A stretch of DNA of 64,000 nucleotides from Candidatus Limnocylindria bacterium (GTDB lineage Bacteria; Chloroflexota; Limnocylindria; P2-11E). The position numbers and the translations under genes were made by a program. Below the pieces are notes generated by a model. It saw nothing but the letters and a program-made list of their open reading frames with translations, ran no database searches and was not told the DNA's origin. The DNA is taken from NCBI GenBank assembly GCA_036570125.1, contig DATCPK010000112.1, positions 398-64,397 of the forward strand. Direction: 5' to 3'. Positions 1 through 22,038 of this stretch are shown here, one piece after another. The first letter of the stretch is position 1; each line of letters starts with the position of its first letter.

Positions 1-23
1 AAGGACACCTGGGTGCTCGGTTA

Positions 24-1013
24 ATGCTGTGCCGGGTCGCGGACGACATGTACTGGACCGCGCGGTACGTCGAGCGCGGTATCGCGGTGTCGCGCCTCAT
101 CGACGTGACGCGCCATCTCGAGCTCGACGTCGGGACCGAGGAGAGCGACTTCTGGGGCCCGCTCGTCGGCGCGATCGGTCTCTCGGCCGAGGACGTCTCC
201 TTCTTTCTGCTGTCGGATGAGAAGAACCCGGACTCGCTGATCTCGTGCGTCCGTCAGTCGCGAGAGCTCGCTCGCGGCATCCGCGAGTCGATCTCGAGCG
301 AGATGTGGGAGGAGCTGAACACCCTCCATCAATCGCTCGCGCTCCCCGGCTCGCAACGGCGCGCGCAGGGCGCGAGCCTGTCGTTCCAGCGTCTCGTTCG
401 CGAGCGACTCCAGCACTTTCAGGGACTCGCCGGGTCGACCCTCGCTCACGATGAGCCGTGGCACTTTCTCACGCTGGGCACATATCTCGAGCGCGCCGAC
501 GGCGTGGTCCGGCTCCTCGGTCGTCAGGCCCACCTGCTCGCGCCGCGGGCTGAGGAGGAGACGACCGACGCCGACATGGTCCGCTGGCTGGCGGTCCTGC
601 GCTCGTGCGGTTCGGCCGAGGCGTACGCGCGCTTCTACTCGCTGCGCGTCGACCCGATCCGGATCGTCGAGTTCCTTCTTTTGAACGCGGTGTTCCCGCA
701 GTCCGTCCGGTTCGCTCTCGGCGCTGCGGACGGTGCGCTGAGTGCCGTGGCCGGGCTCCGCAGCGCGGCAGAGAACGAGGCCGGACCGGCAGTGCGCACG
801 CTGGGCCGCGTTCGCGGCGAGGTCGAGCATGCGGCGATCGATGAGGTCTTCGAGGCGGGGCTGGAGGACTTCCTGTTCGGTGTCCAACGCTTGATCGCGC
901 AGGTCAGCGACGAGATCACCGCGACGTATCTCCGCGACGAGCCGCAGCCGAGCCGCCTCGTCGGAGTCGCGCGCGCGGCGATGCTGATGGCCGCGCAGCA
1001 GCAGCAGCAATGA
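24..1013 (+). CDS. alpha-E domain protein (COG2307/DUF403 family)
   Basis: 329-aa ORF. N-terminus MLCRVADDMYWTARYVERG is the conserved opening of alpha-E family proteins. ATGA overlap with the transglutaminase-like gene that usually follows it. Confidence 0.8.
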   Translation: MLCRVADDMYWTARYVERGIAVSRLIDVTRHLELDVGTEESDFWGPLVGAIGLSAEDVSFFLLSDEKNPDSLISCVRQSRELARGIRESISSEMWEELNTLHQSLALPGSQRRAQGASLSFQRLVRERLQHFQGLAGSTLAHDEPWHFLTLGTYLERADGVVRLLGRQAHLLAPRAEEETTDADMVRWLAVLRSCGSAEAYARFYSLRVDPIRIVEFLLLNAVFPQSVRFALGAADGALSAVAGLRSAAENEAGPAVRTLGRVRGEVEHAAIDEVFEAGLEDFLFGVQRLIAQVSDEITATYLRDEPQPSRLVGVARAAMLMAAQQQQQ

Positions 1014-1840
1014 AGGTACGCGTCGAGCACGTCACGCGATTCGACTACGACTCGGACGTCGTCGAGAGCGTCATCGACGTGCGGCTCGGTCCGCGCAGCG
1101 ATCCGCATCAGCGGTGGGGGCGATTCAACATCGTCATCGATCCGGCCGGGGCCGTCCGCCGCTACGGCGACGGATTCGGCAACACCGCATTCCTGGTGAC
1201 GCTGGCGCGAGCGCACCGCCATTTGGAGGTCCGGACGACCGGCGAGATCGAGACGCTTCTTGCCGACCCGTTCGCGATCCCAGCGCAGGCGCCGGATCCG
1301 CTCGGGCCATCGGCTCTCGCGGACTTCCTCGATCCATCGCCGCTCGTTCCGTTGGTCCCCGAGCTCGAGTCCCTCGCCGGGCCGCTTCGTCCTGTATCGC
1401 CGGACGACACGTTCGCCGCGGTGCAGCGCCTCACGCACCTCGTGAACCAGCGACTCGAATACGTCCCCGGCGTCACGACCGTCGAAACGACCGTCGTCGA
1501 GGTTCTCGGCGAGCCGCGCGGCGTGTGCCAGGACTTCGCGCACCTCCTGATCGGTCTTTGCCGGTCGGTCGCGATCCCGGCGCGGTATGTAAGCGGTTAC
1601 ACCGTCGCCGCCGCGAGCGGCCCGGCCCGCGGTGCCGGCGCGTCGCACGCGTGGGTCGAGGCATTCACACCGACGCACGGCTGGCGCGGATTCGACCCCA
1701 CCAACGACCTCGTCGCGAGCGCATATCACGTGAAGGTCGCGACGGGCCGCGACTATGGAGACGTCCCCCCGCACCAGGGGACATTTCGAGGTCAGGCCGA
1801 GGAGATCCTGTCGGTCGAGGTGAACACCGCGATCGCGTGA
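1010..1840 (+). CDS. transglutaminase-like family protein (COG1305)
   Basis: 276-aa ORF. Core motif GVCQDFAHLLIGLCRSVAIPARYVSGY (catalytic Cys) with downstream SHAWVE (His) and GFDPTN (Asp). Confidence 0.85.
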   Translation: MKVRVEHVTRFDYDSDVVESVIDVRLGPRSDPHQRWGRFNIVIDPAGAVRRYGDGFGNTAFLVTLARAHRHLEVRTTGEIETLLADPFAIPAQAPDPLGPSALADFLDPSPLVPLVPELESLAGPLRPVSPDDTFAAVQRLTHLVNQRLEYVPGVTTVETTVVEVLGEPRGVCQDFAHLLIGLCRSVAIPARYVSGYTVAAASGPARGAGASHAWVEAFTPTHGWRGFDPTNDLVASAYHVKVATGRDYGDVPPHQGTFRGQAEEILSVEVNTAIA

Positions 1841-2401
1841 TCAGGACGTCCGGCCGAAGTCGACATCCTTTGTCTCGACCGTGCCGGCAGTCCGGCCCGG
1901 CGCGGTCTGGTACTTCCAGTACAGGTTCGTATGCGCGATGACCTTGTCCGGCGGCGGCGCCCCCCATGAGCTCTGGTCCTCTGTCGTGTGAGCGTCGCCG
2001 ACAAGAGTGGCGTCGTATCCCCTGGCGAACGCGCCGTGGAGCGTCGAGCGGACGCACGCGTCGGTCTGCGCGCCGACGACGACGAGTCTCCCGACACCGA
2101 GGCCTGACAGCACGCTCTCGAGGGTGGTGTCTTCGAAGGAGTCGCCATAGTTCTTCTCGACGAGCGGCTCGGCTTTATCCGGGCTCAGCTCGGGAACGAT
2201 CCGCCAGTTGTCGCTCCCCTTCGCGAGCCCCTCGTCGGAGTGCTGGACCCAGACCACTGGGACCTTTTCACGTCGAGCCTTCTCGACGAGGCTGCCGACG
2301 TTCGCGACGACTGCGTCGCGCTTGTGAGCCCCCGCGACGACGCCGTTCTGGACGTCGATGACGAGGAGTGCGGTGTTCGGCCGGTTCTTGAGCGTGGTCA
2401 T
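1841..2401 (-). CDS. cysteine hydrolase (isochorismatase family)
   Basis: 186 aa. ALLVIDVQNG near the N-terminus and VVVGAQTDACVRST catalytic-Cys motif. Confidence 0.85.
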   Translation of the reverse strand: MTTLKNRPNTALLVIDVQNGVVAGAHKRDAVVANVGSLVEKARREKVPVVWVQHSDEGLAKGSDNWRIVPELSPDKAEPLVEKNYGDSFEDTTLESVLSGLGVGRLVVVGAQTDACVRSTLHGAFARGYDATLVGDAHTTEDQSSWGAPPPDKVIAHTNLYWKYQTAPGRTAGTVETKDVDFGRTS

Positions 2402-2417
2402 GGTTCCCCCCTACTCC

Positions 2418-2663
2418 CTATCGTCCGACGCGAGCCCGTGCGCCTGTGAAGTCCGTCTCCTTCACGACCTTGCCAGTTCGATCAAAGGTTCGCCACACAC
2501 CGATCTGCTTCCCGCGCTCGAAAGAGCCGCTCCGCATCAGGCTGCCGTCACGCCGAAAGAACTTCCACGGTCCGTGCATCTTGCCGTCGAGATTCGCGCC
2601 ACGAAAGCGGACGCTGCCGTTGTCGTAGTGGTCGATCGCGGGAACGCGCTTACTCGTCGTCAT
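2418..2663 (-). CDS. MORN-repeat-variant protein (YwqK-like)
   Basis: 81 aa. Repeated units GKMHGPWKFFRRDG and GKQIGVWRTFDRTG are typical of MORN-variant repeats. Confidence 0.6.
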   Translation of the reverse strand: MTTSKRVPAIDHYDNGSVRFRGANLDGKMHGPWKFFRRDGSLMRSGSFERGKQIGVWRTFDRTGKVVKETDFTGARARVGR

Positions 2664-2758
2664 CGTCCGGCCTCCGGTCTGTCACAAGGAACCGTCATTG
2701 TTGTTGACCAGCTCTTGTCATGCTCTTGGCGGACCGCTCGAAACGCCGCAAGCGACTG

Positions 2759-2831
2759 AGCCGACGGGCAGACTCGAACTGCCGACCGGCGGTTTACGAA
2801 ACCGCTGCTCTACCGGCTGAGCTACGTCGGC
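2759..2831 (-). tRNA. tRNA-Thr (anticodon CGT)
   Basis: 73-nt cloverleaf folded by hand on the minus strand. Acceptor GCCGACG/CGTCGGC, D-arm GCTC/GAGC, anticodon stem GCGGT/ACCGC with loop TTCGTAA, T-arm GGCAG-TTCGAGT-CTGCC. CCA is not encoded. Confidence 0.9.
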
Positions 2832-2883
2832 GAGGAACGCCGGTGGCAAGTTTACCGGCTGCGGACCTCCACGTTGGAGTACC

Positions 2884-2909
2884 GGAATAGGGACGGCGCG
2901 CGTTCCGTT
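2884..2909 (+). promoter_or_regulatory. SigR/SigH-type ECF promoter (GGAAT-N18-GTT) for the deazaflavin oxidoreductase gene
   Basis: GGAAT at 2884-2888, exactly 18 nt, then GTT at 2907-2909. The GTG start codon is at 2918, so the transcript would be leaderless or nearly so. Confidence 0.55.
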
Positions 2910-2917
2910 CAGGGGAT

Positions 2918-3328
2918 GTGGCCGCCGACTGGAACAAACAGACCATCGACGATTTCCGCTCGAAAGGCGGTAAAGGCGTCGGTCCCTTCGGCGACAAGCT
3001 GCTGCTGCTGACAACCAGGGGAGCCAAGAGCGGGCGGGTCCGAACCACGCCGGTCGTATATCACCGCGACGGTGACCGTTACGTCGTCGCCGCCTCGATG
3101 GGTGGCGCCCCGACGCACCCCGCCTGGTACCACAACCTCGTGAAGCATCGTGAGGCCGAGGTCGAGGTCGGCAAAGAGAAGTTCAAGGTCCGCGCAACGC
3201 CCGTCGCGAAGGGACCTGAGCGCGATCGTCTCTACAAAGCGCATGGCGCCAACTTCGCGGCGTTCAAAGATTACCCGGCGAAGACCACTCGCGTCATCCC
3301 GATCGTCGTGTTGGAGCGCGTCTCCTAG
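2918..3328 (+). CDS. deazaflavin (F420H2)-dependent nitroreductase-family oxidoreductase (DDN-like)
   Basis: 136 aa. Family-typical LLLLTTRGAKSGRVRTTPVVY, GGAPTHPAWYHNL and C-terminal RVIPIVVLE. Confidence 0.8.
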   Translation: MAADWNKQTIDDFRSKGGKGVGPFGDKLLLLTTRGAKSGRVRTTPVVYHRDGDRYVVAASMGGAPTHPAWYHNLVKHREAEVEVGKEKFKVRATPVAKGPERDRLYKAHGANFAAFKDYPAKTTRVIPIVVLERVS

Positions 3329-3358
3329 CCCGACCTCAATCCGCGAGACTCCAGCACG

Positions 3359-4591
3359 ATGGCGTCGGCACCCCTCAATAACAACGGCGACTTCATCAAG
3401 CTGTGGGCCGGCTTCACGATCGCGCGCGTCGGGAGCCAGATCACGGTCCTCGCGTTGCCCCTTACCGCAGTGCTCCTCCTCGGCGCGGGCGCCACGGAGA
3501 CGGGTCTGCTCGTGGCGGCGCAGATGCTGCCTTCGATCGTCGCGGGTCTCTTCATCGGCGTGTGGGTCGATCGTCTTCCCAGGCGGCCGATCCTCATCTG
3601 GTCGGACATCGCGAGCGCGATCGTCATCGCAAGCGTCCCACTCGCCGCTGCGCTCGGCGCGCTGAGCCTCGGGCAGCTCTACGTCGTGTCGTTCCTAGGC
3701 GGCTTGTTCGCGGTCTCGACGGACCTCGCGCGCGCCGCGATGGTCCCGTCGCTCGTCGGACGGACTCGACTCGTCGCCGCGAACAGCCGGCTCCAGGCAT
3801 CCAGCGCCGTGGCGCAGGTCGCCGGTCCGTCCCTTGGAGGGATCCTCGTTCAGACGCTCACCGCACCGATCGCCATGTTGTGGGACGCGGTGGGCTTCAT
3901 CGTGTCCGCGCTCTTCATCGCCACCATCCGTTCACCCGAAGCCTCGCGGTCACGCGAGACGGAACGCAGCGTCTGGCATGAGATCACCGCGGGCCTGCGC
4001 TGGGTGCGCGGGCAGCCGATCGTCTTTCGCTGCATAACCGCGATCGCCCTCGCGAACATTGAGTGGTTCGCCGTGCAGGGCGTCCTCGTGGTCTACGCGA
4101 CCCGCGAGCTCGGGTTGTCGCCCGCGCTCCTCGGCATCTCGCTCGCTGCGATCGGTCCGCTCAGTCTTCTCGGCGCCGGCCTCGCAGGACCGCTCACTGC
4201 GCGATGGGGACTCGGGCCGGTGATGATCGCCGCGCTCTTCCTCGAGACGCTCAGCCGGCTGCTCCTTCCCTTCGCGACCGGAACGCCGGCGCAAGCGGCA
4301 ACCGTCCTCGGAATCTCCCAGGCCCTCCTCGGTCTCACCGTGCCCCTCTGGACAGTGAGCTCCGCCAGCCTGATCCAGGCGCTGACTCCGGACCAGCTGC
4401 TTGGGCGCGTGAGCTCCGCGACGCGGTTCATCGGGTTCGTCGTGGCCCCGCCCGCCGCGTTCGGAGCGGGGATCGTCGGCGACCTCATCGGGCTTCGGCC
4501 GACACTCTTCGCCTCGGCGGTCATCGCGGCTCTTGCCTTCCTGTACCTCCTTCTCTCGCCCGTCCGTCGATATCAGCATCCGACGACGTAG
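3359..4591 (+). CDS. MFS transporter
   Basis: 410 aa, about 12 hydrophobic segments. N-terminus is MFS_3/enterobactin-exporter-like (FIKLWAGFTIARVGSQITVLALPL). Confidence 0.75.
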   Translation: MASAPLNNNGDFIKLWAGFTIARVGSQITVLALPLTAVLLLGAGATETGLLVAAQMLPSIVAGLFIGVWVDRLPRRPILIWSDIASAIVIASVPLAAALGALSLGQLYVVSFLGGLFAVSTDLARAAMVPSLVGRTRLVAANSRLQASSAVAQVAGPSLGGILVQTLTAPIAMLWDAVGFIVSALFIATIRSPEASRSRETERSVWHEITAGLRWVRGQPIVFRCITAIALANIEWFAVQGVLVVYATRELGLSPALLGISLAAIGPLSLLGAGLAGPLTARWGLGPVMIAALFLETLSRLLLPFATGTPAQAATVLGISQALLGLTVPLWTVSSASLIQALTPDQLLGRVSSATRFIGFVVAPPAAFGAGIVGDLIGLRPTLFASAVIAALAFLYLLLSPVRRYQHPTT

Positions 4592-4605
4592 CGCAGACTG
4601 TCGTC

Positions 4606-4872
4606 ATGCCGCAAGCGCTGTGCGCTCACCTCCGTCGCGCTCGGGACCACCGCCCGAACACTCCGAACGGCTGCGAAGAATGTCTTGCGACGGGGGATTC
4701 GTGGGTGCACCTTCGGCTCTGCCTGGAGTGCGGCCACGTGGGCTGCTGCGACGACTCGCCGAACAAGCACGCCACGAAGCACTACCGCGCAACGACGCAT
4801 CCGGTGATCCGTTCCTTCGAACCCGGCGAGCGGTGGCGTTTTTGCTACCCGGACGACCTCTTCGTCGAGTAA
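4606..4872 (+). CDS. UBP-type zinc-finger protein
   Basis: Only the last 88 codons of the 269-aa track ORF look real. ATG at 4606; CEECLATGDSWVHLRLCLECGHVGCCDDSPNKHATKHY is a UBP-type Zn-finger signature. The upstream part is Arg/Pro-rich and overlaps the MFS gene. Confidence 0.7.
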   Translation: MPQALCAHLRRARDHRPNTPNGCEECLATGDSWVHLRLCLECGHVGCCDDSPNKHATKHYRATTHPVIRSFEPGERWRFCYPDDLFVE

Positions 4873-4875
4873 CCC

Positions 4876-5541
4876 TTAGCGGGAGCTCGTCACACCGACA
4901 CGCGGGCACAGGTCGCGCAAGACGCACTCCGAGCATCGCGGGCGCTGCGCGAGGCACACCTCTCGCCCATGCCGGATGAGGTTCATATGCAGCGCGTACA
5001 TCTCCTCATCGGGGACGCTCTCCTGGAACGCGGCCTGCGTCGCGACCGCGTCGGAGCGCGGCGGCACGAGACCGAGCCGGATCGCGACGCGATGGACGTG
5101 GGTGTCGACCGGAAAATACGGACGGTCCAGGGAGAAGAGAAGGACGCACGCCGCCGTCTTCGGTCCCACGCCGGGGAGCGCGACGAGCGTGTCCCAAAGA
5201 TCCTGATCGGGCACGGATGTGAACGCGTGCTCGTCGAGCGGCACACCGCTCTCGCGGATCCCCCGAAGCATCGCGCGAATGCGGACGGCCTTCGTCGGTC
5301 CGAGGCCGCCGCGGCGGATCGCTTTAGCGAGCGCGGGCAGCGGCGCGTCGGCGACCTCGTCCCAGACGCCGAACCGCCGCCGTAGATCTGCGTACGCGCG
5401 ATCGCGATTCGTGTCGCTCGTGTGCTGCGAGAGCACCGTGAGAACGAGCTCTTCGAGAGGCGGGAGGTGTCGAGGTGGTGGCGGTATCCCATAGGCGCGA
5501 GCGAGACGACGCGCGATGGCGCGGAGACGCCGCCGGTCCAC
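4876..5541 (-). CDS. endonuclease III-like HhH-GPD base-excision repair protein
   Basis: 221 aa. HhH element LVALPGVGPKTAACVLLF and C-terminal 4-Cys loop CLAQRPRCSECVLRDLC (C-x6-C-x2-C-x5-C). Confidence 0.75.
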   Translation of the reverse strand: MDRRRLRAIARRLARAYGIPPPPRHLPPLEELVLTVLSQHTSDTNRDRAYADLRRRFGVWDEVADAPLPALAKAIRRGGLGPTKAVRIRAMLRGIRESGVPLDEHAFTSVPDQDLWDTLVALPGVGPKTAACVLLFSLDRPYFPVDTHVHRVAIRLGLVPPRSDAVATQAAFQESVPDEEMYALHMNLIRHGREVCLAQRPRCSECVLRDLCPRVGVTSSR

Positions 5542-5557
5542 TCACCGGAGCGTATCG

Positions 5558-5583
5558 GGAATGGCGGGAGCGTCGGGAACGTT
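5558..5583 (+). promoter_or_regulatory. SigR/SigH-type autoregulatory ECF promoter (GGAAT-N18-GTT)
   Basis: GGAAT 5558-5562, 18-nt spacer, GTT 5581-5583, lying 16 nt upstream of the sigma-factor ATG (5600). Confidence 0.6.
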
Positions 5584-5599
5584 GGGATAAAGTGACCGG

Positions 5600-6181
5600 A
5601 TGGCCGAGGACGCGTTCGAGAGCGAGGCTCTCTCTTACATCGACGCGCTGTACCGGACGGCGCTCCGGATGACGCGATCGGAGGCGGACGCAGAGGATCT
5701 CGTGCAGGAAACCTATATCCGGGCGCTCCGCTTTCGCGAGCAGTTCACCCCGGGGACGAACCTCAAGGCCTGGCTCTTCCGCATCCTCACGAACACCTTC
5801 ATCAACGCCTACCGCAAGCGGGCAAGGCAGCCCCAGACGGCTGAGCTCGATGATGTGGACGAGTTCTCGCTTTACCGGAAGATGTCCCAGGACACTCCCG
5901 GATCGAACAACGCCGACCCCGAACAGGAATTTCTGGACGGCATCGTGTCGAGCGAGGTCAAAGAGGCCCTCGCAGCCCTTCCCGAGAAGTTCCGGACCAC
6001 CGTGCTGCTCGACGTCGAGGGGTTCTCCTATAAGGAGATCGCCGAGATGGTCGGCGTGCCCATCGGCACGGTGATGTCGCGGCTCCATCGCGGCCGCAAG
6101 TTCCTACAGCAGAAGCTGTACGACGTCGCCCGAGAGCGCGGGATCGCCGCGCTCCGGACCAGCGGGCCACGACCGGACTAG
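5600..6181 (+). CDS. ECF-type RNA polymerase sigma-70 family factor (SigH/SigR-like)
   Basis: 193 aa. Region 2 [16 protein letters not shown]...[15 protein letters not shown] and region 4 [25 protein letters not shown]. Followed by a ZAS anti-sigma gene. Confidence 0.9.
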
Positions 6182-6191
6182 GGAGGGCGGG

Positions 6192-6434
6192 ATGGACTGC
6201 GACGACTGTCTCGAGAAGCTGTACTCGTTCCTCGATCAGGAGCTTGGGTCAAACGAACGTAAACAAGTCGCGAGCCACCTCGATGGGTGCACCGACTGTG
6301 GCGACAACCTCGCGTTCGAGGAGCGCTTCCTACAGGTGATCCGCGACTGCGGGACCTCCGATGTCGCTCCCGCGGAGCTCCGAAGACGCATCGCGGAGCG
6401 GCTACGGAGTGACGTTCCCCCGCCGACCGCCTGA
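6192..6434 (+). CDS. zinc-binding anti-sigma factor (ZAS, RsrA-like)
   Basis: 80 aa. N-terminal CDDC plus H-x3-C-x2-C motif (HLDGCTDC), 10 nt downstream of the sigma gene. Confidence 0.85.
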   Translation: MDCDDCLEKLYSFLDQELGSNERKQVASHLDGCTDCGDNLAFEERFLQVIRDCGTSDVAPAELRRRIAERLRSDVPPPTA

Positions 6435-6454
6435 GCTCGTTCCGGTCATGTCTG

Positions 6455-6487
6455 TTGACATCTGCAACGTGAGTGTGTCTATATAAC
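6455..6487 (+). promoter_or_regulatory. candidate sigma-70-type promoter of the 15-codon ORF
   Basis: Consensus -35 TTGACA (6455-6460) followed by the AT-rich block TCTATATAAC (6478-6487). The best -10-like hexamers sit 19-21 nt downstream, longer than the 17-nt optimum, so the call is tentative. Confidence 0.4.
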
Positions 6488-6522
6488 CTTGCAATGCGTG
6501 GCCAGAAGGAGGTGATTCCCTA

Positions 6523-6570
6523 ATGCCAGCAAAGAAGAAGGCGAAGAAGTCCTCGAAGAAGAAGCACTAA
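6523..6570 (+). CDS. 15-aa lysine-rich peptide MPAKKKAKKSSKKKH (not in ORF track)
   Basis: ATG preceded by AAGGAGGTGAT (full anti-SD complement; the GGAGG core at 6508-6512 ends 10 nt before the ATG). TAA stop is followed 9 nt later by a strong intrinsic terminator. Confidence 0.55.
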   Translation: MPAKKKAKKSSKKKH

Positions 6571-6579
6571 GAGTGTCTT

Positions 6580-6606
6580 AGCGACGACGAGAGTCGTCGC
6601 TTTTTT
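6580..6606 (+). terminator. rho-independent terminator
   Basis: Perfect 9-bp stem AGCGACGAC / GTCGTCGCT with loop GAGA. The last stem base is the first T of a six-T run (6601-6606). Confidence 0.85.
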
Positions 6607-6754
6607 AGTTTCGTGTCTGGCACCTTTCGCGAACCCGCCGATCCGCGTAGGCCTCGCGGATCGGTTTCTTTTTACCCGGGGTACGCTCCACGACATCGCA
6701 CAGCAGCGCGCTCTTCCACCCATCAACCAGATCGCCGTCGCGGTCGGCGTTCTC

Positions 6755-7102
6755 GTGGCGGCCGCGGTCGCGTCCCTCCTCCGTCTGGCGGCCTCGTCCT
6801 CTGCACCGAACTTTGGTATCGCCGCGCCGCTTTGTGGTATCACCCTCGGCGCCTTCATCGCGGGAAAAGTGGCCAAAAATGGGGGTCTTTTCCACGGAGC
6901 CCTCGTTGGGGTCGGTTATGTCCTCGTCGAGGCAATCGGTCTCGCGCCGGCGCCACTCGACCCCTCGGGCGATGGTCTCGCCGAGGGTCTTTCGATCATC
7001 GCGGGCGACGCTCTCCTGCTCGCACTCGCGGCTCTGGTTGGTTGGCTCGCAGCGCCGCAGGCAACGTCTTCGTCTTCTTCGGGTACGGGCAGAGGTCGAT
7101 GA
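6755..7102 (+). CDS. small polytopic membrane protein (TIGR04086/YrzE-like, tentative)
   Basis: 115 aa. GAFIAGKVAKNGGLFHGALVGVGYVLV resembles that family. The in-frame upstream sequence (INQIAVAVGVL) looks like the start of TM1, so the true start is uncertain. The 3' end overlaps nth convergently. Confidence 0.5.
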   Translation: MAAAVASLLRLAASSSAPNFGIAAPLCGITLGAFIAGKVAKNGGLFHGALVGVGYVLVEAIGLAPAPLDPSGDGLAEGLSIIAGDALLLALAALVGWLAAPQATSSSSSGTGRGR

Positions 7103-7751
7103 TCGGACAGATCGGGCAGAGCGGAGTCGGTCTGCAGATGCGACGACCGTGGAGAACGAAGCACCACGTCGCCTTGATCCAGTCCTTCTTCGGGTAGATC
7201 GCCCGAAGGCTCGCCTCGATGTCCGGACCCGCGCGATCGAGTCGGAGCCGGTCGGCCACGCGCTCCACATGCCGGTCGACGGCCACCGCGGGGACCCCAA
7301 ACGCCGCTCCGAGGACGATCGATGCCGTCTTGCGACCGACTCCATGCAGCCGCGTGAGCCCGTCCATGTCGGACGGAACCTCGCCGCCGAACTCCTCGAG
7401 GAGGCCGCGCGCCATCGCGCGAAGCGATTTCGCCTTCTGGTTGAAGAAGCCGGTCGCCTTGATGTCCCGCTCGAGGACGCCCGCCGGCGCCGCGGCGTAG
7501 TCCGCCGGGCTCCGGTACTTCGCGAACAGGACCCGGGTGACTTCGTTGATCCGCTCGTCCTGCGCCTGCGCGGCGAGGATCGTCGCGACGAGCAGCTCGA
7601 GCGGCGACGAGAAGACAAGGGTGGGTCCCCAGTCGGGGTTGGCCTTCGCGAGGCGGGTCAGGATCTTCCGGGCACGTGATCGGATCGCGGCATCTGGGCG
7701 GGTGACGCGGGGCTTCGGTCGTTTGGGCCGCGCCGGCATCGGCTGAACCAT
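6996..7751 (-). CDS. nth: endonuclease III
   Basis: HhH LTRLHGVGRKTASIVL, catalytic-region AVDRHVERV, 4-Cys cluster loop CRPTPLCPICPIIDLC. Start placed at MVQPMPARPK (ATG 7751); the track ORF extends to 7832. Confidence 0.85.
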   Translation of the reverse strand: MVQPMPARPKRPKPRVTRPDAAIRSRARKILTRLAKANPDWGPTLVFSSPLELLVATILAAQAQDERINEVTRVLFAKYRSPADYAAAPAGVLERDIKATGFFNQKAKSLRAMARGLLEEFGGEVPSDMDGLTRLHGVGRKTASIVLGAAFGVPAVAVDRHVERVADRLRLDRAGPDIEASLRAIYPKKDWIKATWCFVLHGRRICRPTPLCPICPIIDLCPYPKKTKTLPAALRANQPEPRVRAGERRPR

Positions 7752-8166
7752 ACTCGCGGCCGCTCGAGCGAGGTGCTGAGCTGCCCCGCTCGGAGATCCG
7801 CCCAGGTAATGAGAGCGCGGAACGCACGGCACCAGGCCACGACGCTCTGGTAGCTCGCCACGTCGGCGGTCCCGGCAGCTCGTAATAAAAGGAGCCGTTC
7901 GTCGCCAAGCTCGCCTGACCGCAGCAGGCGCATAGGCGCTGACGGCTCCCCCTGGCGAGGCGTCAGGGAACCAGTCGAGCTGGCGGCGGCCGAAGCCACT
8001 GACGGCGGCGCCTCATTCCTATAGGTATGCACGAGGAGCGGCGAGGCCAAATACCCGACGACGGCGGAGAGCGCCGTGAGCGTGAAGAGCGCACCAGCGA
8101 GTCCAGTTGGGTGGGCGGAAAAAGAAGGGCCGACTTCTCACGAGCACATGCGGGCGCGTCCCTTGA

Positions 8167-8195
8167 TTGACGCCCGCTCGGCCGCCTCCTACGCT
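8167..8195 (+). promoter_or_regulatory. candidate promoter of the liv-type ABC operon
   Basis: TTGACG (8167-8172), 17-nt spacer, TACGCT (8190-8195), about 80 nt upstream of the SBP start codon. Confidence 0.3.
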
Positions 8196-8275
8196 CGTCC
8201 GTCAAACGCGGGTCGCTCGATTGCGTGAGGAATACGCGAAGGCCCGAAGACGCAAATCGCATGTGGGAGGAACGA

Positions 8276-9523
8276 ATGCAGCGACGTTGGTACACGGTCG
8301 GTGCGCTCATCGCGGGCTTCGCGATGGTTGCAACGGCGTGCACAGGGGCAACAGGGGGCACCGCCGGCAGTGGTGGCACGTCGAAAGGCGAGATCATCAT
8401 CGCCAGCGACCAGCCGACATCCGGTGGCGACGCATCGGACGGAGTGCCGGCACAGAACGGCATCCAGTTCGCGGTGGAGTCCGCAGGCTCGATCAAGGGC
8501 TTCAAGCTCACCTTCAAGGGCTGGGACGACACCGTGAACGGAAACCACGACCCGCAGAAGGGCGCGCAGAACATCCAGGAGATGATCGCCGACGCGAAGA
8601 TCCTCGGGATGATCGGCCCGAACAACTCCAACGTTGCGTTTGCGCAGATCCCGATCGCGAACCGTTCGAACTTCGTCATGATCAGCGCCGCCAACACGAA
8701 CGAGTGCCTGACGCAGACCTTCACGTACTGCTCGCCGCAGCCGGCCTCGCTCCGGACGGCGGGTCCGAACAACTACTTCAGGATCGCGGCCGCTGACACG
8801 TTCCAGGGCCCCGGCATGGCGGACTTCGCCTATGACACCCTGAAGCTCACCAAGATCGCCGTATGGTCAGACAACGAGACCTTCGGCAAGGGCGTCGCGG
8901 ACAACTTCTCGAAGGAGTTCACCAAGAAGGGCGGCACGGTCGTCGTTCGTCAGGACTTCGACACCAAGACCACCAACGACTGGCGACCGTTCCTGACCGA
9001 CGCGAAGAGCAAGGGCGCGCTCGGCGTGTACGCCGGCGCGACGAGCGGCACGAAGATTTGTATCCCGCGCGCGCAGATGAAGGGCCTGCTCGACGTGCCC
9101 TACATGGTGCCGGACGGTGGCGTGAACGCGCAGTGCATCACAGACGCGGCCGACAACGGCGCCAACATGTACGGAACGGTCGCCGCGGCCGATGCGGCGC
9201 AGAACCCCGACGCCAAGGCGACCATCGACGCGTTCACCAAGCGCTTCCCCAACAAAGCAGACGTCGGGTCGTACACCTTCCCGGCGCTGGACTGCGCGAA
9301 CATCCTCATCGACGCGATCGGCCGGGCCATCGACGCAAACGGCGGCAACATGCCGAGCCGCGAGCAGGTCCGCGCCGCGGTTGCCGCGACAAAGGGCTTC
9401 AAGGGCACGACGGGCACATACACGTTCGACGCTAACGGGGACCCGACCTCGCCCACAATGGCGATCTTCCAGACCAAGGGCACAGACTGGGTATTCATCA
9501 AGCAGTTCGGGGTCGGCGGCTAG
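8276..9523 (+). CDS. branched-chain amino acid ABC transporter substrate-binding lipoprotein
   Basis: Start at ATG 8276 behind GGGAGG. Signal peptide with lipobox MVATAC. Periplasmic-binding type-I (LivJ/K-like) sequence, followed by livHMGF-type genes. Confidence 0.85.
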   Translation: MQRRWYTVGALIAGFAMVATACTGATGGTAGSGGTSKGEIIIASDQPTSGGDASDGVPAQNGIQFAVESAGSIKGFKLTFKGWDDTVNGNHDPQKGAQNIQEMIADAKILGMIGPNNSNVAFAQIPIANRSNFVMISAANTNECLTQTFTYCSPQPASLRTAGPNNYFRIAAADTFQGPGMADFAYDTLKLTKIAVWSDNETFGKGVADNFSKEFTKKGGTVVVRQDFDTKTTNDWRPFLTDAKSKGALGVYAGATSGTKICIPRAQMKGLLDVPYMVPDGGVNAQCITDAADNGANMYGTVAAADAAQNPDAKATIDAFTKRFPNKADVGSYTFPALDCANILIDAIGRAIDANGGNMPSREQVRAAVAATKGFKGTTGTYTFDANGDPTSPTMAIFQTKGTDWVFIKQFGVGG

Positions 9524-9580
9524 CAGACACACGTGAGTGGAGGGGGCGACACTCGCCCCCTCCCCGCTTGAGGGGGGCAT

Positions 9581-10624
9581 GTGGTCGGCTCGCTGAAACA
9601 GGCTAGAGCGACGTTCGTCAAAGCGCCCATCGGACGCGTGATCTCAGCGCTCCTCATCCTGGCGATCGTTTACGCGCTCTTCGTCCTCGGGACGAAGATC
9701 CTCGACCGGGGCCCCAGCTACTTCCTGCAGATCCTGACGTACGGAGTGGCTAACGGCGCGATCTACGCGCTGGTCGCTCTCGGCTACACGATGGTCTACG
9801 GGATCATCGAGCTCATCAATTTCGCTCACGGCGACCTGTTTACGCTCGGCGGGTTCATCTCGGTCTTCTTGCTCCCGATCTTCGGACTCAACGCGACCAA
9901 CGCCGGGACGGCGGGAATCATCCTGCCGCTCATCGCCGTCTTCCTTGTGACGATGCTCCTCTGCGGCGCCATCAACGTGACTATCGAGCGTGTCGCGTAC
10001 CGCCCGCTCCGCCACGCGCCGCGTCTGGCTCCGCTCATCACCGCGGTCGGAATGTCGTTCGTCCTCGAGGGATTGATGTACCTGTGGAAGGGTCCGTTCA
10101 ACGTGCCCTACCCGAACCTGCTGCCCGCAACGAGCTTCGTGATCGGCGGTGCCACGATCGGCGTGAAGGACATCTTCGTCATCGTGGTCGCGGCGGTCCT
10201 CATGATCGTGCTGGCCCTCTTTGTGAGTCGGTCGACGCTCGGGAAGGCCATGCGCGCGACGGCTCAGGATCAGGACGCGACCGAGCTGATGGGGATCGAC
10301 ATCAACCGCACGATCGCGGCGACATTCTTCATCGGGGCGGTGCTCGCTGGCGCCGGCGGAACGATCTTCGGTCTCTACTACAACACGATGGTCTTCGATC
10401 TGGGGTTTTCGGCCGGCCTCTTCGCGTTCACAGCGGCCGTCTTTGGCGGCATCGGGAACATTCAAGGCGCGGCGCTGGGCGGGCTCCTCATTGGTCTGAT
10501 CACCGCACTGTGGGACGGCTACCTGGAGTCCACCTGGACGCAAGTCATCATCTTCGCGATCCTCATCCTCGTCCTCGTTTTCAGGCCCACCGGCCTTCTC
10601 GGGATGCGAGTGCCGGAGAAATGA
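9581..10624 (+). CDS. livH: branched-chain amino acid ABC transporter permease
   Basis: 347 aa polytopic. LivH-type motifs (IELINFAHGDLFTLGGF; AMRATAQDQDATELMGI). Confidence 0.85.
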   Translation: MVGSLKQARATFVKAPIGRVISALLILAIVYALFVLGTKILDRGPSYFLQILTYGVANGAIYALVALGYTMVYGIIELINFAHGDLFTLGGFISVFLLPIFGLNATNAGTAGIILPLIAVFLVTMLLCGAINVTIERVAYRPLRHAPRLAPLITAVGMSFVLEGLMYLWKGPFNVPYPNLLPATSFVIGGATIGVKDIFVIVVAAVLMIVLALFVSRSTLGKAMRATAQDQDATELMGIDINRTIAATFFIGAVLAGAGGTIFGLYYNTMVFDLGFSAGLFAFTAAVFGGIGNIQGAALGGLLIGLITALWDGYLESTWTQVIIFAILILVLVFRPTGLLGMRVPEK

Positions 10625-11841
10625 GAAATCCCCTTTCGCGGCTTGGATCCATCCTGGAGCGCGACCCTCGAAAGGACCCGAACGCGCTCGTATTCCTTCT
10701 CCTCACGTTCGGTGTGATCGCGTTCCCGATCGCTGTTCAGGTCGTCACACGGGGCAGCGGCAGCTTCCTGATCTCGCAGGCCGCGGACGCGGGGGTGTAC
10801 GTGCTGCTCGCCATCGGACTGAACGTGGTCGTGGGGTTCGCGGGTCTGCTCGACCTCGGCTACGCGGCGTTCTTCGCGATCGGCGCGTACACGTACGCGT
10901 TCCTCGCCTCGGACCGTCTCGCCTTCACACCGCTGCACCAGTCGGTGCACCTGCCGTTCTGGATCCTGCTGCTCGTCGGAATGTTCGTCGCGGCGTCGGC
11001 GGGCGCGATCCTTGGCGCGCCGACGCTCCGACTTCGCGGCGACTACCTCGCGATCGTCACCCTCGGGTTCGGCGAGATCGTCCCGAGGGTCTTCCGGAAC
11101 CTCTCGGTGTGGACGAACGGCGTGAACGGGATATCCGCCCTCGATACGCCGGCGCTGCCGATCTGGCTGAACGGGCCGTGGTCCGGCGATGCGTTGGCGG
11201 TCGTTCAGAACTTCAAGATCATCGACCCGCTGGCCTACTACGTGATCATGGCCATCCTCGTCGCGATCTCTGTCGTCCTCGTGAACAATCTGCGGCGGTC
11301 GCGCATGGGTCGCGCGTGGATGGCCGTCCGCGAGGACGAGGTCGCCGCGGCGGCGATGGGTGTCAACACGGTCGGTGTCAAGCTGCTGGCCTTCAGCATC
11401 GGCGCGGCGTTCAGCGGCTTCGCGGGGACCTTCTACGGGGCCAAGCTGTCGCTGGTGTCGCCCGAGAATTTCGGCTTCACCGTCTCGATCACGATCCTGA
11501 TCATGGTGGTGCTCGGGGGGATGGGGAACATCCCGGGCGTCATCGTGGGAGCGCTCCTCATCTATTACGTGATCTTCAACATCCTGCCCGGCCTCCCACA
11601 GCAGGCAGCGGACTTCGCCAACTCGATCGGCGCGACGAGTCTCAACCGCCCGAGTGGCGACTGGCCGGGCCTCAGCGGCGAGGTGCAGCGACTGAAGTAC
11701 CTCATCTTCGGTCTGATCCTGGTCCTCACCATGCTGCTTCGGCCGCAGGGCCTCCTGCCGAGCCGGCAGCGCGCCGAGGAGCTCCAAAAGGGCGTGCACG
11801 AAGACACCACGATCGAAGACGTGAACGCGGAGACGGCATGA
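10621..11841 (+). CDS. livM: branched-chain amino acid ABC transporter permease
   Basis: True start at ATG 10621 (ATGA overlap with livH). LivM-type GLLDLGYAAFFAIGAY and GRAWMAVREDEVAAAAMG. The upstream part of the 585-aa track ORF is out-of-frame noise. Confidence 0.85.
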   Translation: MRNPLSRLGSILERDPRKDPNALVFLLLTFGVIAFPIAVQVVTRGSGSFLISQAADAGVYVLLAIGLNVVVGFAGLLDLGYAAFFAIGAYTYAFLASDRLAFTPLHQSVHLPFWILLLVGMFVAASAGAILGAPTLRLRGDYLAIVTLGFGEIVPRVFRNLSVWTNGVNGISALDTPALPIWLNGPWSGDALAVVQNFKIIDPLAYYVIMAILVAISVVLVNNLRRSRMGRAWMAVREDEVAAAAMGVNTVGVKLLAFSIGAAFSGFAGTFYGAKLSLVSPENFGFTVSITILIMVVLGGMGNIPGVIVGALLIYYVIFNILPGLPQQAADFANSIGATSLNRPSGDWPGLSGEVQRLKYLIFGLILVLTMLLRPQGLLPSRQRAEELQKGVHEDTTIEDVNAETA

Positions 11842-12620
11842 CCGTCGAGCCCTCCACCGAACCGATCCTTCGGGTCGACCACGTGACGAAGCGCTTTGGG
11901 GGCCTCGTCGCGGTCGACGACGTAACGTTCGAGGTCAAACGCGGAGAGATCTTCGCGCTCATCGGACCGAACGGCGCGGGCAAGACGACGCTTTTCAACG
12001 GCATCACCGGCATATTTCCACCCACCGCAGGACGGATCGTTTTCCAGGGTCGCGAGATCACCGGCGCAAAGCCGCACCAGGTCGCGGCGTTCGGCATCGC
12101 GCGGACCTTCCAGAACATCAGGCTCTTCGAGTACATGTCCTCCCTCGACAACGTGCGCCTCGGACAGCACTGCCGAATGCACGCGAAGCTCTGGGACTCG
12201 CTCTTCAAGACACCGGTCGAGCACCGCGAGGAAAAGCGCGTCACCGACCGCGCGATGGAGCTCCTCGAGTTCGTCGGCATCGAGAAATACACCCACACCT
12301 ACGCACGCAACCTGCCCTATGGCTCACAGCGCCGCCTTGAGATAGCGCGCGCGCTGGCTACGAATCCCGCACTTCTGCTCCTGGACGAGCCCGCGGCCGG
12401 TTTCACGCCGCAGGAGAAGGTCGAGCTCATGGGACTTGTGCACAAGATCGTCGACCAGGGGGTCACGGTCTTCCTCATCGAGCACGACATGAAGGTCGTG
12501 ATGGGTGTGTCCCGCCGGATCGTCGTGCTCGACCACGGTGAGAAGATCGCCGAGGGAACGCCCGAGCAGGTGCGCCGCGACCAGCGCGTCATTGAGGCAT
12601 ATCTGGGGACACAGCACTAG
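11838..12620 (+). CDS. livG: ABC transporter ATP-binding protein (LivG-type)
   Basis: ATG 11838 (ATGA overlap). Walker A GPNGAGKTT, signature LPYGSQRRLEIARAL, Walker B LLLLDEPAAG. Confidence 0.9.
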   Translation: MTVEPSTEPILRVDHVTKRFGGLVAVDDVTFEVKRGEIFALIGPNGAGKTTLFNGITGIFPPTAGRIVFQGREITGAKPHQVAAFGIARTFQNIRLFEYMSSLDNVRLGQHCRMHAKLWDSLFKTPVEHREEKRVTDRAMELLEFVGIEKYTHTYARNLPYGSQRRLEIARALATNPALLLLDEPAAGFTPQEKVELMGLVHKIVDQGVTVFLIEHDMKVVMGVSRRIVVLDHGEKIAEGTPEQVRRDQRVIEAYLGTQH

Positions 12621-13331
12621 GTGGGGCTCCTGGATGTCATGGGTATCAACGTGTTCTACGGCCGCGTTCAGGCGCTCCGCGGCGTCTCCCTGAGCATCAA
12701 CGCTGGAGAGATCGTCGCGCTCATCGGATCGAACGGCGCGGGAAAGACGACGACGCTGCGCACGATCTCAGGTCTCAACCACGCTACGACCGGACGGGTG
12801 ATCTTCGATGGACGCGATATCAGTGCCATACCGGCACACGACGTCGTGCGAGCCGGGATCGGTCATGCCCCCGAGGGCCGACGCCTTTTCCCTCGGATGA
12901 TCGTCTTCGACAACCTGATGATGGGGACCTACGCGCGGAAAGATCGCGCCGGTATTCCGGCTGACATCGCGCGCGTGTACGAGCTCTTCCCCCGTCTCAA
13001 GGAGCGAACGAAGCAACTCGCCGGAACGCTCTCCGGTGGCGAGCAGCAGATGCTGGCGATCGGACGCGCGCTCATGGCGCGTCCGAAGCTCCTCATGCTC
13101 GACGAACCCTCGCTCGGGCTCGCCCCCATCCTCTGCGAGACGATCTTCCGCGTACTGACCGAGATCAACGCGCAGGGGACGCCGATCCTCTTGGTCGAGC
13201 AGAACGCGACCAAGGCGCTGGAGGTCGCGCATCGCGCCTACGTTCTGGAGACGGGTTCGATCGTTCAGACCGGGACCGGCAAAGAGCTTCTCTCCTCCCC
13301 CGACGTGCAGCGCGCGTACCTCGGAATGTGA
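12621..13331 (+). CDS. livF: ABC transporter ATP-binding protein (LivF-type)
   Basis: GTG start directly after the livG stop. Walker A GSNGAGKTT, signature LSGGEQQMLAIGRAL, Walker B LLMLDEPS. Confidence 0.9.
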   Translation: MGLLDVMGINVFYGRVQALRGVSLSINAGEIVALIGSNGAGKTTTLRTISGLNHATTGRVIFDGRDISAIPAHDVVRAGIGHAPEGRRLFPRMIVFDNLMMGTYARKDRAGIPADIARVYELFPRLKERTKQLAGTLSGGEQQMLAIGRALMARPKLLMLDEPSLGLAPILCETIFRVLTEINAQGTPILLVEQNATKALEVAHRAYVLETGSIVQTGTGKELLSSPDVQRAYLGM

Positions 13332-13357
13332 CCGCCCGCGCTCTCTAGACTTCGCGG

Positions 13358-14713
13358 GTGGCCCGAACGCTTCCTTCACTGAGAGTTCCCGCCGATGTCG
13401 AACGCGTCCTCGTCCGCCTCGAGCAGGCGGGATTCGAGGCATTCGTCGTGGGCGGCAAGGTCCGCGACGCGGTCCGAGGGATCGACTCGCCCGGGGCATG
13501 GGACCTCACGACGAGCGCGACGCCCGAGGAGATCCAGGGGCTGTTTCGGCGGACGTTCTACCTGAACCACTTCGGTACCGTGACCGTCAGGTCCGGCGAT
13601 GAAGAGGTCGAGGTCACGACGTACCGGACCGAGACCGAGTACACCGATCATCGCCGGCCGGATCACGTGACCTTTACGCGGTCACTTCACGAGGATCTTT
13701 CCCGCCGCGATTTCACCATGAACGCGATGGCGTGGCGTCCGCCGGCGGACGGCAAGTCAGGCGAGCTCGTGGATCCGTTCGGCGGCCAGCGCGACCTCGA
13801 CGCGCGAATCGTTCGCGCCGTCGGCGATCCGCGCGAACGCTTCAAGGAAGACGCGCTGCGGATGCTGCGCGCCGTGCGCTTCGCGACGCTCCTCGGCTTC
13901 ACGATCGACTCCCAGACCGCCGAAGCGATCCGCGAATCGGCCCCGCTCGCCGAGACGCTGTCGGGCGAACGCATCCGGCAGGAAATGGTGAAGATCCTCT
14001 CGGCCCCCAAGCCCTCGGTCGCCTTCCGACTGCTGAGCGACCTCGGCCTGCTCGCTGTGGTCTTTCCGGAGCTGGAGATCGCGAAGACGATCCCGCAGGA
14101 CAAAGCCGTCGCGCAGGACGTCTTCGAGCACTCGATCGTCACCGCGGATGCGACGCCGGCAGACGACCTCGTTCTCCGTCTGGCGGGGCTTCTGCACGAC
14201 ATCGGCAAGCCCGACACGTTCGCCGACGGACATTTCCATCAGCACGAGTTCGTCGGCGAGGCTAAAGCCCGCAACATCTTGCGGCGCTGGCGTTTCGACA
14301 AAGAGACGATCGCGCAGGTGACGCTCCTCATCCGAAATCACATGTTCTGGTACCAGACGGACTGGACGGGCTCTGCGGTCCGTCGCTTCGTTCGGAAGGT
14401 GGGGCTCGAGAACATCCCCGCGCTCTTCGCGCTGCGCAAGGCCGACAACATCGGGAGTGGCGCCCGTTCCCCGCGGATGTACGCCCTCGAATCGCTCTGG
14501 GAGCGCGTGCAGGAGGAGATTCGCGCGGCGTCGGCCTTCTCGCTGAGAGATCTCGCGATCGACGGTACCGATGTGATGAAGGAGCTCGGCGTCCCGCCAA
14601 GCCCGCGCGTCGGTCAGATCCTCAACGAGCTATTCGAACGCGTCACCGAAGACCCGACGCTCAACACCAGAGAACACCTGCTCAAGCTCGCGCACAAGAT
14701 CGGCGCGAATTAG
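13358..14713 (+). CDS. cca: CCA tRNA nucleotidyltransferase / poly(A) polymerase-family enzyme with HD domain
   Basis: 451 aa. FVVGGKVRDAVRG (GG-x-VRD NTase motif), RDFTMNAMA, and an HD domain LLHDIGKP. Confidence 0.8.
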   Translation: MARTLPSLRVPADVERVLVRLEQAGFEAFVVGGKVRDAVRGIDSPGAWDLTTSATPEEIQGLFRRTFYLNHFGTVTVRSGDEEVEVTTYRTETEYTDHRRPDHVTFTRSLHEDLSRRDFTMNAMAWRPPADGKSGELVDPFGGQRDLDARIVRAVGDPRERFKEDALRMLRAVRFATLLGFTIDSQTAEAIRESAPLAETLSGERIRQEMVKILSAPKPSVAFRLLSDLGLLAVVFPELEIAKTIPQDKAVAQDVFEHSIVTADATPADDLVLRLAGLLHDIGKPDTFADGHFHQHEFVGEAKARNILRRWRFDKETIAQVTLLIRNHMFWYQTDWTGSAVRRFVRKVGLENIPALFALRKADNIGSGARSPRMYALESLWERVQEEIRAASAFSLRDLAIDGTDVMKELGVPPSPRVGQILNELFERVTEDPTLNTREHLLKLAHKIGAN

Positions 14714-14755
14714 GCGAATAACGCTCGGCCGGGAGGGCTGACAGCGCAGTGGGGG

Positions 14756-14779
14756 CCGGCGACCCTAAGTGGTCGCCGG
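14756..14779. terminator. hairpin between convergent genes (possible bidirectional terminator)
   Basis: Perfect 9-bp stem CCGGCGACC / GGTCGCCGG with 6-nt loop CTAAGT, between the cca (+) and ytxH-like (-) 3' ends. No clear U-tract. Confidence 0.4.
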
Positions 14780-14843
14780 AGGGACCCACGAGCGTGGCAG
14801 TTCTCTCGGCCGAGTGGGAACGCGCGCTCCGTAGAGCTGGTTA

Positions 14844-15221: not shown

Positions 15222-15253
15222 GACAAGCCTCCTCTGAGCGCTCGAAGCGCGGA

Positions 15254-16382: not shown

Positions 16383-16389
16383 GGACGTG

Positions 16390-16587
16390 TTAGCGCTTAC
16401 GCGGACGTTCGAACGTGGTGGTCACGGGCTGGACCACCGGTGCGAGCTTGCCCGCCGCGAACGACACGAAGGTCACGCACGGGCAATAGGTGTTGCGAGG
16501 GCACCGCGGACAATCCCCATCACAGTCCAGGGTGGCTCCATAGGAGCACTTGAGACAGTTGTCCTCGCAGACGATCCATTCCTTCAT
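16390..16587 (-). CDS. cysteine-rich small protein (65 aa), function unknown
   Basis: GC3-rich ORF. It has 8 Cys within residues 7-37, arranged as two C-x3-C-x2-C units plus C-x-C. The stop lies 7 nt upstream of the prfB TTG start. Confidence 0.55.
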   Translation of the reverse strand: MKEWIVCEDNCLKCSYGATLDCDGDCPRCPRNTYCPCVTFVSFAAGKLAPVVQPVTTTFERPRKR

Positions 16588-17659: not shown

Positions 17660-17677
17660 GGGCTCACCGCCTTATTA

Positions 17678-19452: not shown

Positions 19453-22038
<2,586 letters not shown>

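Follow-up and report, generated by a model that had tools for sequence, protein, structure and literature searches.

Between an anti-sigma factor gene and an open reading frame for a membrane protein, a Candidatus Limnocylindria genome carries a short stretch of DNA that an earlier note had described as a self-contained and strongly expressed mini-gene for a tiny basic peptide. The questions raised by this locus are whether such a gene exists and, if so, whether it acts through its peptide, its RNA, or both. Members of Limnocylindria (formerly Ellin6529) abound in soils and lakes, and no isolate has, to our knowledge, been described. Our analysis of the window, that is, the whole 64-kb stretch of DNA, and of homologous loci elsewhere supports a self-contained, strongly expressed mini-gene, as shown by conserved expression signals and a deep, discrete RNA. 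In addition, the complementarity of the RNA tail to the end of the L7/L12 messenger suggests, at the level of sequence, an unannotated ribosome-linked regulator.

Composition and conservation of the locus

The mini-gene follows a glycosylase gene of the HhH-GPD family (4876-5541, minus strand), an ECF sigma factor gene (5600-6181, plus strand) and a zf-HC2 anti-sigma factor gene (6192-6434, plus strand), and it precedes a DUF3792 membrane-protein ORF (6755-7102, plus strand) and a convergent endonuclease-III-like gene, nth (6996-7832, minus strand). By composition count, GC content is 66% in the window, 47% in the span first singled out and 51% in the full unit. The cassette is therefore AT-richer than its surroundings, as had been claimed, although the figure of about 70% GC given for the genome has to be replaced by 66% for the window. 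Every signal that had been read in this span (TTGACA, an AT-rich block, a Shine-Dalgarno (SD) sequence, a 15-codon ORF, and a hairpin with six T) is present where it had been placed. The end of the unit had been set at 6606 and needs correction, as the unit continues to 6673. Two minus-strand ORFs in the region (6520-6876 and 6605-7618) were rejected by frame and GC3 analysis and have junk-like translations.

When species-representative genomes were scanned with the sigma factor, the loci returned were 94-97% identical, came from metagenome-assembled genomes (MAGs) labelled Chloroflexota/Candidatus Limnocylindria and had an identical gene order. The mini-ORF occupies the equivalent position in all 32 Limnocylindria genome loci with enough downstream sequence. 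A separate metagenome scan, for which the 3' element described below served as the query, returned 120 stretches, including 36 loci where the element is followed by the second hairpin of the unit; in all 36, an SD sequence and a mini-ORF lie upstream of the element. Pattern matches such as L144 were discarded as chance occurrences within coding regions. Overall, the complete cassette is conserved in 69 of the 69 loci examined.

Promoter and translation signals

At the 5' end of the unit, a -35-like hexamer, TTGACA (6455-6460, plus strand), is invariant in the 33 aligned loci, where its distance to the -10 block is fixed across a spacer of variable sequence. The -10 region is a nearly invariant block, TGTGTCTATATAAC (6474-6487, plus strand), containing both TATATA (6480-6485) and TATAAC (6482-6487). 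The resulting -35 to -10 spacing of 19-21 nt is non-canonical, which explains why a standard promoter scan, with a spacing of 16-18 nt, detected no promoter at the locus. The 5' end of the RNA, at 6495, lies 7-8 nt downstream of TATAAC.

The 5' UTR (6495-6522, plus strand) is conserved in all loci and contains an invariant GTGGCCAG (6498-6505) followed by the SD sequence AAGGAGGTGAT (6506-6516). The latter is complementary to the canonical 3' tail of 16S rRNA, AUCACCUCCUU. The start motif ATGCCNGCNAAGAAGAAG, expected 0.03 times per window, was observed once in the 64 kb. A possible 5' hairpin (6495-6531) encloses the SD sequence and the start codon by pairing (U/C)GC.GUGGC with codons 2-3. Its closing pair joins position 6495 (U/C) to the third base of the Ala codon (A/G) and, across 58 loci, was found as U-A in 19, C-G in 14, U.G in 14 and G-C in 1, with a mismatch in the other 10. 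This pairing with codons 2-3 may be the reason for the preference for purine-ending Pro and Ala codons.

Coding signature of the mini-ORF

The mini-ORF, MPAKKKAKKSSKKKH, comprises 15 codons and a TAA stop at 6523-6570 on the plus strand (ATG at 6523, TAA at 6568-6570) and has homologues in 69 loci. Its peptide contains eight Lys residues, one fewer than the nine first counted, and has a charge of about +8 and an unmodified mass of 1725 Da (approximately 1.7 kDa). Across the 69 loci, we identified 43 distinct ORF nucleotide sequences encoding 26 peptides of 13-21 aa, which are built solely from eight residue types (M, P, A, K, S, T, H and G) and never contain Arg. All peptides start with MPAKKK except one, which starts with MAAKKK. 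Among the 43 versions, the start codon is ATG in 39 and GTG in 4, and the stop codon is TAA in 23 and TAG in 20.

The pattern of substitution is that of a coding sequence. Codons 2 and 3 vary at the third position only in all loci but L159, which has Ala at codon 2. Synonymous variation affects the Pro, Ala and Ser codons, with all four codons in use for Ala and five for Ser, both TCN and AGC. The Lys blocks remain in phase with the ATG across at least eight length variants. Because start, stop and SD are kept while synonymous codons vary freely, this comparative signature makes translation of the mini-ORF very likely. The reading of the ORF as a coding sequence is thus supported across the 43 nucleotide versions. 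The note had also proposed a comparison with relatives, in which a conserved hairpin without a conserved frame would count against a coding role; we found the reverse, as frame, start, stop and SD are kept and the hairpin sequence drifts.

The composition of the peptides is also uncommon for their surroundings. Lys:Arg is 243:0 in the mini-peptides, compared with 53:130 in six neighbouring genes, and this difference points to selection for Lys or for AAG, which accounts for 393 of the 397 Lys codons. Three properties limit how the coding signal is to be read. The +1 frame is likewise open over the ORF in all 43 versions, triplet-repeat DNA favours insertions and deletions in multiples of three regardless of coding, and RNA-level selection on the (AAG)n tract could mimic part of the signal. 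Moreover, the peptide is of low complexity and variable length, features that would be uncommon in a protein fitting a defined binding pocket.

A discrete transcript of about 175 nt

A 250-nt stretch covering this locus is present in many soil and rhizosphere metatranscriptomes. In run X23, a 214-nt contig with a depth of 39 covers 6472-6669 and is followed directly by Illumina adapter sequence after 6669, while the flanks have depths of 0-3.5. In run X28, a contig with a depth of 14.7 covers 6495-6689, with the reverse complement of an adapter directly before 6495, and run X27 contains the 5' part of a sister variant at a depth of 55. Together, these metatranscriptome contigs define a discrete RNA that spans about 6495 to about 6669 and is over 10 times deeper than its neighbours, which bears out the prediction of an abundant small transcript. 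Coverage of the region was flat in runs X34-X37, which we read as DNA (their library type is not on record). The contigs are strandless, and the strand cannot be read from the adapter types at either end, so that the RNA is assigned to the plus strand on account of its promoter, SD sequence and terminators.

Terminator-like sites are frequent in this region, with 7 found between 5400 and 7800 compared with 1.2 expected. The fold and terminator scan identified hairpin 1 (6580-6601, plus strand) as a 9-bp stem with a 4-nt GAGA loop, followed by TTTTTT in a T run that extends to approximately 6607. In other lineages, the stem is kept with altered sequences, and in many of them the U-run is absent. 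RNA contigs pass through hairpin 1, and some end at 6606, for which reason it may terminate part of the transcripts and act, at most, as a partial terminator. The strong terminator that had been proposed as the end of the cassette is therefore present as a structure, a 9-bp hairpin with six T, while the RNA continues beyond it.

The terminator of the unit is hairpin 2, a stem of 11 pairs followed by TTTCTTTTT (6637-6673, plus strand; hairpin at 6637-6665). Hairpin 2 and its U-run occur in all loci, with compensated stem variants such as GCG...CGC, GCT...AGC and GGT...ACC. Given a 5' end that follows TATAAC and a 3' end inside the U-run of hairpin 2, the RNA is approximately 175 nt long and runs through hairpin 1.

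In RNAalifold, the SD sequence (GGAGGUG) pairs with CACCUUU of the 3' element, with all columns invariant and no covariation. Single-sequence folding places this intramolecular helix a median of 6.7 kcal/mol above the minimum free energy (MFE) structure, and we carry the predicted helix forward as a hypothesis only. Neither RNAalifold nor the MFE folds contained a conserved alternative (antiterminator) pairing. In run X24, an RNA contig of depth 3.4 has 6516 fused to 6617, with both the ORF and hairpin 1 skipped; this joint could be a reverse-transcriptase skip over the SD:element helix, or it could come from a divergent locus without the ORF.

Complementarity between the 3' element and the rplL messenger

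The most conserved stretch of the unit lies outside the ORF. It is a 29-nt element, GTCTGGCACCTTTCGCGAACCCGCCGATC (6615-6643, plus strand), which is nearly invariant, runs into hairpin 2 and has a single copy in the window. The element contains an anti-SD-like CACCTTTC / CACCUUUC and a palindrome, TTCGCGAA (6626-6633). Within the 64-kb window, a search for sequences able to pair with the element returned scattered 8-10-mers only, none of them at a ribosome-binding site. This part of the unit lies beyond the first terminator-like hairpin, and it illustrates how a "terminator" read from sequence alone can conceal the most constrained part of a transcription unit.

A partner was found in another operon. 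When reverse-complemented, the 3' element corresponds to a conserved stretch in the 3' UTR of rplL, the gene for L7/L12, in Limnocylindria. The metagenome contig L086 carries the element after rplL and has no mini-ORF, and its L7/L12 protein groups with Limnocylindria proteins. In the rplL loci of several lineages, the stretch reads ..GAUCGG(C/U)GGGCUCGCGAAAGGUG(C/U)CGGAC in the rplL sense, lies 95-215 nt past the rplL stop codon, and directly precedes a GC-rich hairpin and UUUGGUUUU. The complement was present in every rplL locus with enough downstream sequence. At least five different genes follow rplL, depending on the lineage (ApbE, GGDEF, guanylate cyclase, beta-eliminating lyase, RibD_C, or a membrane protein), and the element therefore travels with rplL. 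RNA contigs also connect the rplL coding region to the element. As the most conserved part of the mini-gene is antisense to the rplL 3' UTR, its RNA probably has a role of its own, with a link to the ribosome at the RNA level.

Both partners could be compared within the same genome in two cases only, VBDV (L004 and L205) and DATDNP (L019 and L221). In the VBDV pair, which extends over 29 nt, there are one G.U pair and one A.C mismatch. DATDNP differs from VBDV at both loci in a matched manner: the mini-gene has CCCACC in place of CCCGCC and the rplL side has GGUGGG in place of GGCGGG, which amounts to a change from a G-C to an A-U pair. The predicted energies of the core duplexes are -60.0 and -58.1 kcal/mol for the cognate combinations, -57.7 and -54.6 kcal/mol for the swapped ones, and -22.2 +/- 3.8 kcal/mol for shuffled sequences, so that cognate duplexes are better than swapped ones by 2-3.5 kcal/mol. 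Cofolding of the two 3' regions yields a net gain of about -19 kcal/mol; full-length duplexfold energies were uninformative. Elsewhere, the few variable positions coincide at both loci and have complementary alleles, such as GACACC with GGUGUC, although these comparisons are not paired by genome. An internal A.C mismatch persists in most pairs.

The Limnocylindria rplL 3' UTR (L201-L237 and the reverse complement of L086, from the stop codon to approximately +215 nt) is itself long (95-215 nt), conserved and rich in hairpins, and may represent a 3'-UTR RNA or a regulatory element in its own right. One of its hairpins, GCUGCCA-GGAU-UGGUAGC, contains G.U pairs that are valid in the rplL sense only.

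Relation to known families

By sequence and by model, the mini-gene belongs to no described family. Variants of 20-24 aa searched against NCBIfam and Pfam at E <= 10 matched no small ribosomal protein model, including bS22, bL37 and Thx, and the same variants matched no PDB chain at E <= 10; the only weak match, Rv3852_fam with E = 1.5, is not significant and was set aside as noise. An exact look-up of four variants (20-24 aa) in a collection of 15 billion predicted proteins returned none of them; ORFs as short as 13-21 codons are not called by gene-prediction programs. Rfam covariance models gave no match at E <= 1 in 6455-6673, and a search of five rplL loci at permissive thresholds returned nothing relevant. 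Our literature search found nothing relevant on small proteins of Limnocylindria or on MPAKKK.

Several known systems share features with the mini-gene. The small ribosomal proteins bS22/eL41/mS38, bL37 and Thx resemble it as very short, highly basic ORFs that are missed by annotation and abundantly transcribed. Members of the bS22/eL41/mS38 class have about 24-33 aa and are rich in both Arg and Lys, whereas the mini-peptide has 13-21 aa, uses Lys only and varies in length; a conserved length such as that of bL37 and Thx is not seen in these Arg-free peptides. bL37 is a well-conserved protein. So is bS22 of Borrelia, an unannotated protein with 61% Lys/Arg that forms a defined bent helix and changes at a single residue across species, and unannotated basic ribosomal proteins of about 25-33 aa have thus been described before (PMC10618245).

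The architecture of the transcript is closer to that of dual-function RNAs. Like SgrS/SgrT, RNAIII/delta-haemolysin and SR1/SR1P, it is a small transcript with its own promoter and terminator, and its ends, at 6495 and 6669 in strandless contigs, are those of a discrete RNA; a peptide that is very likely translated and a separate candidate base-pairing region would complete the likeness. These known coding small RNAs have no sequence relation to it. In addition, its candidate target is the 3' end of the mRNA of a ribosomal-protein operon, which is unusual, instead of a 5' UTR or ribosome-binding site, and the predicted pairing is long (about 29 nt).

Lys- and Ala-rich tails offer another parallel. 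The tail of mycobacterial HupB and the histone-H1-like chlamydial Hc1 have the same composition of K, A, P and S and prefer Lys over Arg even in high-GC genomes. Those tails belong to folded proteins of at least 100 aa, whereas the mini-peptide is free-standing, has 13-21 aa and is expressed from its own promoter. Finally, rnTrpL/peTrpL of Sinorhizobium is reported to be a leader-peptide attenuator of which both RNA and peptide act in trans (10.1101/606483). The likeness consists of a short ORF enriched in the codons of one amino acid, a terminator-like hairpin close behind and a small RNA with the potential to act in trans; the mini-gene departs from it in that neither a cognate biosynthetic operon downstream nor a conserved antiterminator is present and hairpin 1 often lacks the U-run.

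Alternative interpretations

The explanation that we prefer is a dual-function RNA, which combines a translated polycationic micro-peptide with a 3' UTR that would pair with the 3' end of the rplKAJL mRNA; we hold the chances of this reading to be about evenly balanced. It has to be weighed against simpler explanations that retain only the peptide or only the RNA. If the locus were a plain gene for a ribosomal mini-protein of the bS22/eL41, bL37 or Thx type, the peptide would be a stoichiometric component of the ribosome, and the complementarity to rplL would only co-regulate the two or be irrelevant. The strong expression signals, the abundant RNA and the extremely basic peptide agree with this explanation, as do the class-wide distribution of the gene, its single copy in the window and the RNA-level link to a ribosomal-protein operon, and the small basic ribosomal proteins that had escaped annotation provide a precedent (PMC10618245). 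We nevertheless regard it as rather improbable, as there is no NCBIfam, Pfam or PDB match, the peptide has neither Arg nor a hydrophobic or aromatic anchor, and its range of 13-21 aa and loose internal sequence differ from the nearly invariant bS22 of Borrelia (PMC10618245). The opposite simplification, a non-coding small RNA with an incidental ORF, would assign the (AAG)n tract and the SD-like sequence to RNA-level roles such as ribosome or protein binding and pairing. It could draw on the non-coding nature of the most conserved part, the open +1 frame and the ability of the U-tail to pair with the AAG tract in MFE folds. The substitution pattern argues against it: codons 2 and 3 vary at the third position only (except in L159), Ser switches between TCN and AGC, the non-Lys codons specify small residues only, ATG or GTG stands at a conserved distance from the SD sequence, and TAA or TAG lies right behind the last Lys block. 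This explanation consequently appears highly unlikely.

Two further explanations concern the purpose of the ORF and the nature of the element. The ORF could be a translation-sensing attenuator, with Lys codons that sense the supply of ribosomes or Lys-tRNA and a functionless peptide; a ribosome finishing the ORF, which ends 4-17 nt before hairpin 1, would hinder that hairpin and decide whether transcription stops there or continues into the element. As in leader peptides, only the composition is conserved and the length varies, AAG dominates the Lys codons, hairpin 1 is near the stop codon, and the contigs include short ones that end at 6606 as well as others that read through; rnTrpL/peTrpL, as reported, also offers a precedent for an attenuator RNA acting in trans (10.1101/606483). 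An attenuator would, however, be expected to have an antiterminator exclusive with the terminator and a downstream operon for the amino acid of the leader. The mini-gene has no conserved antiterminator pairing, hairpin 1 lacks the U-run in many lineages, and what follows is a second terminator and then the DUF3792 gene, which is not related to lysine and seems to have its own -10-like box, all of which leads us to consider attenuation unlikely. The 29-nt element shared with rplL could also be a feature of the DNA, whether as an inverted repeat or as a protein-binding operator around the palindrome TTCGCGAA, with the mini-gene simply a peptide gene. Such an inverted repeat or shared protein site would give the same pattern, and this rival therefore stays in contention: the core is palindromic, a DNA motif present in two copies would be just as likely to show matched changes, and the A.C mismatch is tolerated. 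We find it doubtful all the same. Both copies lie inside transcribed 3' UTRs adjoining intrinsic terminators and not near a shared promoter, which is why we favour the RNA-level reading; moreover, the genes downstream of rplL differ between lineages, and the G.U pairs in the nearby rplL 3' UTR hairpin are valid only in the rplL sense.

Proposed mechanism and significance

Under the preferred interpretation of a dual-function RNA, the locus is an independent transcription unit specific to Candidatus Limnocylindria, whose RNA of about 175 nt (approximately 6495-6669) would have two functions. A housekeeping-type promoter and the 11-nt SD sequence would drive translation of a peptide of 13-21 residues, made of Lys and small residues. 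In the cell, this peptide would most likely bind RNA as a polycation. The ribosome is its leading candidate target, and a role there is plausible. We know of no Limnocylindria ribosome structure.

The second function would reside in the invariant element, presumably single-stranded, ahead of the terminator. Its predicted partner is the mRNA of rplKAJL (L11-L1-L10-L7/L12), at the 3' end and directly before the operon terminator, and the pairing would extend over about 29 nt, as 14-18 bp, an internal mismatch of 1-3 nt and a further 8-10 bp. If formed in vivo, this pairing would couple the mini-gene to the ribosomal-protein operon. Its consequence might be mutual stabilisation of both RNAs or RNase cleavage of the 29-bp duplex. 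Another option is that the anti-SD-like element would be titrated off the SD sequence of the mini-ORF, in which case peptide synthesis would follow the level of the ribosomal-protein mRNA.

A more elaborate proposal would join these parts into a gauge of ribosome capacity, in which the poly-Lys ORF behind its exceptionally strong SD sequence reports free ribosomes or Lys-tRNA, the amount of antisense element that is made or exposed depends on its translation, the element in turn targets the rplKAJL mRNA at its 3' end, and the peptide joins the ribosome. We offer it as speculative and improbable as a whole. Should it prove true, it would represent a previously unknown feedback loop on ribosome synthesis together with a new lineage-specific ribosomal micro-protein. 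If confirmed, the dual-function reading would by itself provide a class-wide micro-protein of extreme composition, a rare example of a coding small RNA partnered with a core ribosomal-protein operon at its 3' end, and a concrete RNA-RNA pair for studying the coordination of ribosomal proteins outside the model phyla.

Neighbouring genes and related loci

The surroundings of the mini-gene also offer several observations. Two glycosylase genes of the HhH-GPD/endonuclease-III family (4876-5541 and 6996-7832, both on the minus strand) bracket the ECF sigma and zf-HC2 pair, within a DNA-repair and redox-stress neighbourhood whose synteny around the sigma/anti-sigma pair is class-wide. Downstream, the conserved DUF3792-like ORF (6755-7102, plus strand) shares about 107 nt with the 3' end of the endonuclease-III-like gene, which is convergent to it. 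Some 10-45 nt past hairpin 2 lies a conserved TACGCT/TACTCT box, which may be the -10 element of the DUF3792 gene. Elsewhere, within positions 1-20000 of the window, one part occurs mainly in human-derived sequencing runs and may correspond to a strongly conserved gene or to a contaminant-like segment.

Among public MAGs, the sigma locus also occurs on L006, L024, L053, L055 and L063, which are labelled as Bathyarchaeia, Acidiferrales, Cytophagia, Calditrichota or Methanobacteriota and look mis-binned. The sigma factor identity is 94% for L006 and 77% for L024, and the mini-gene is present on both.
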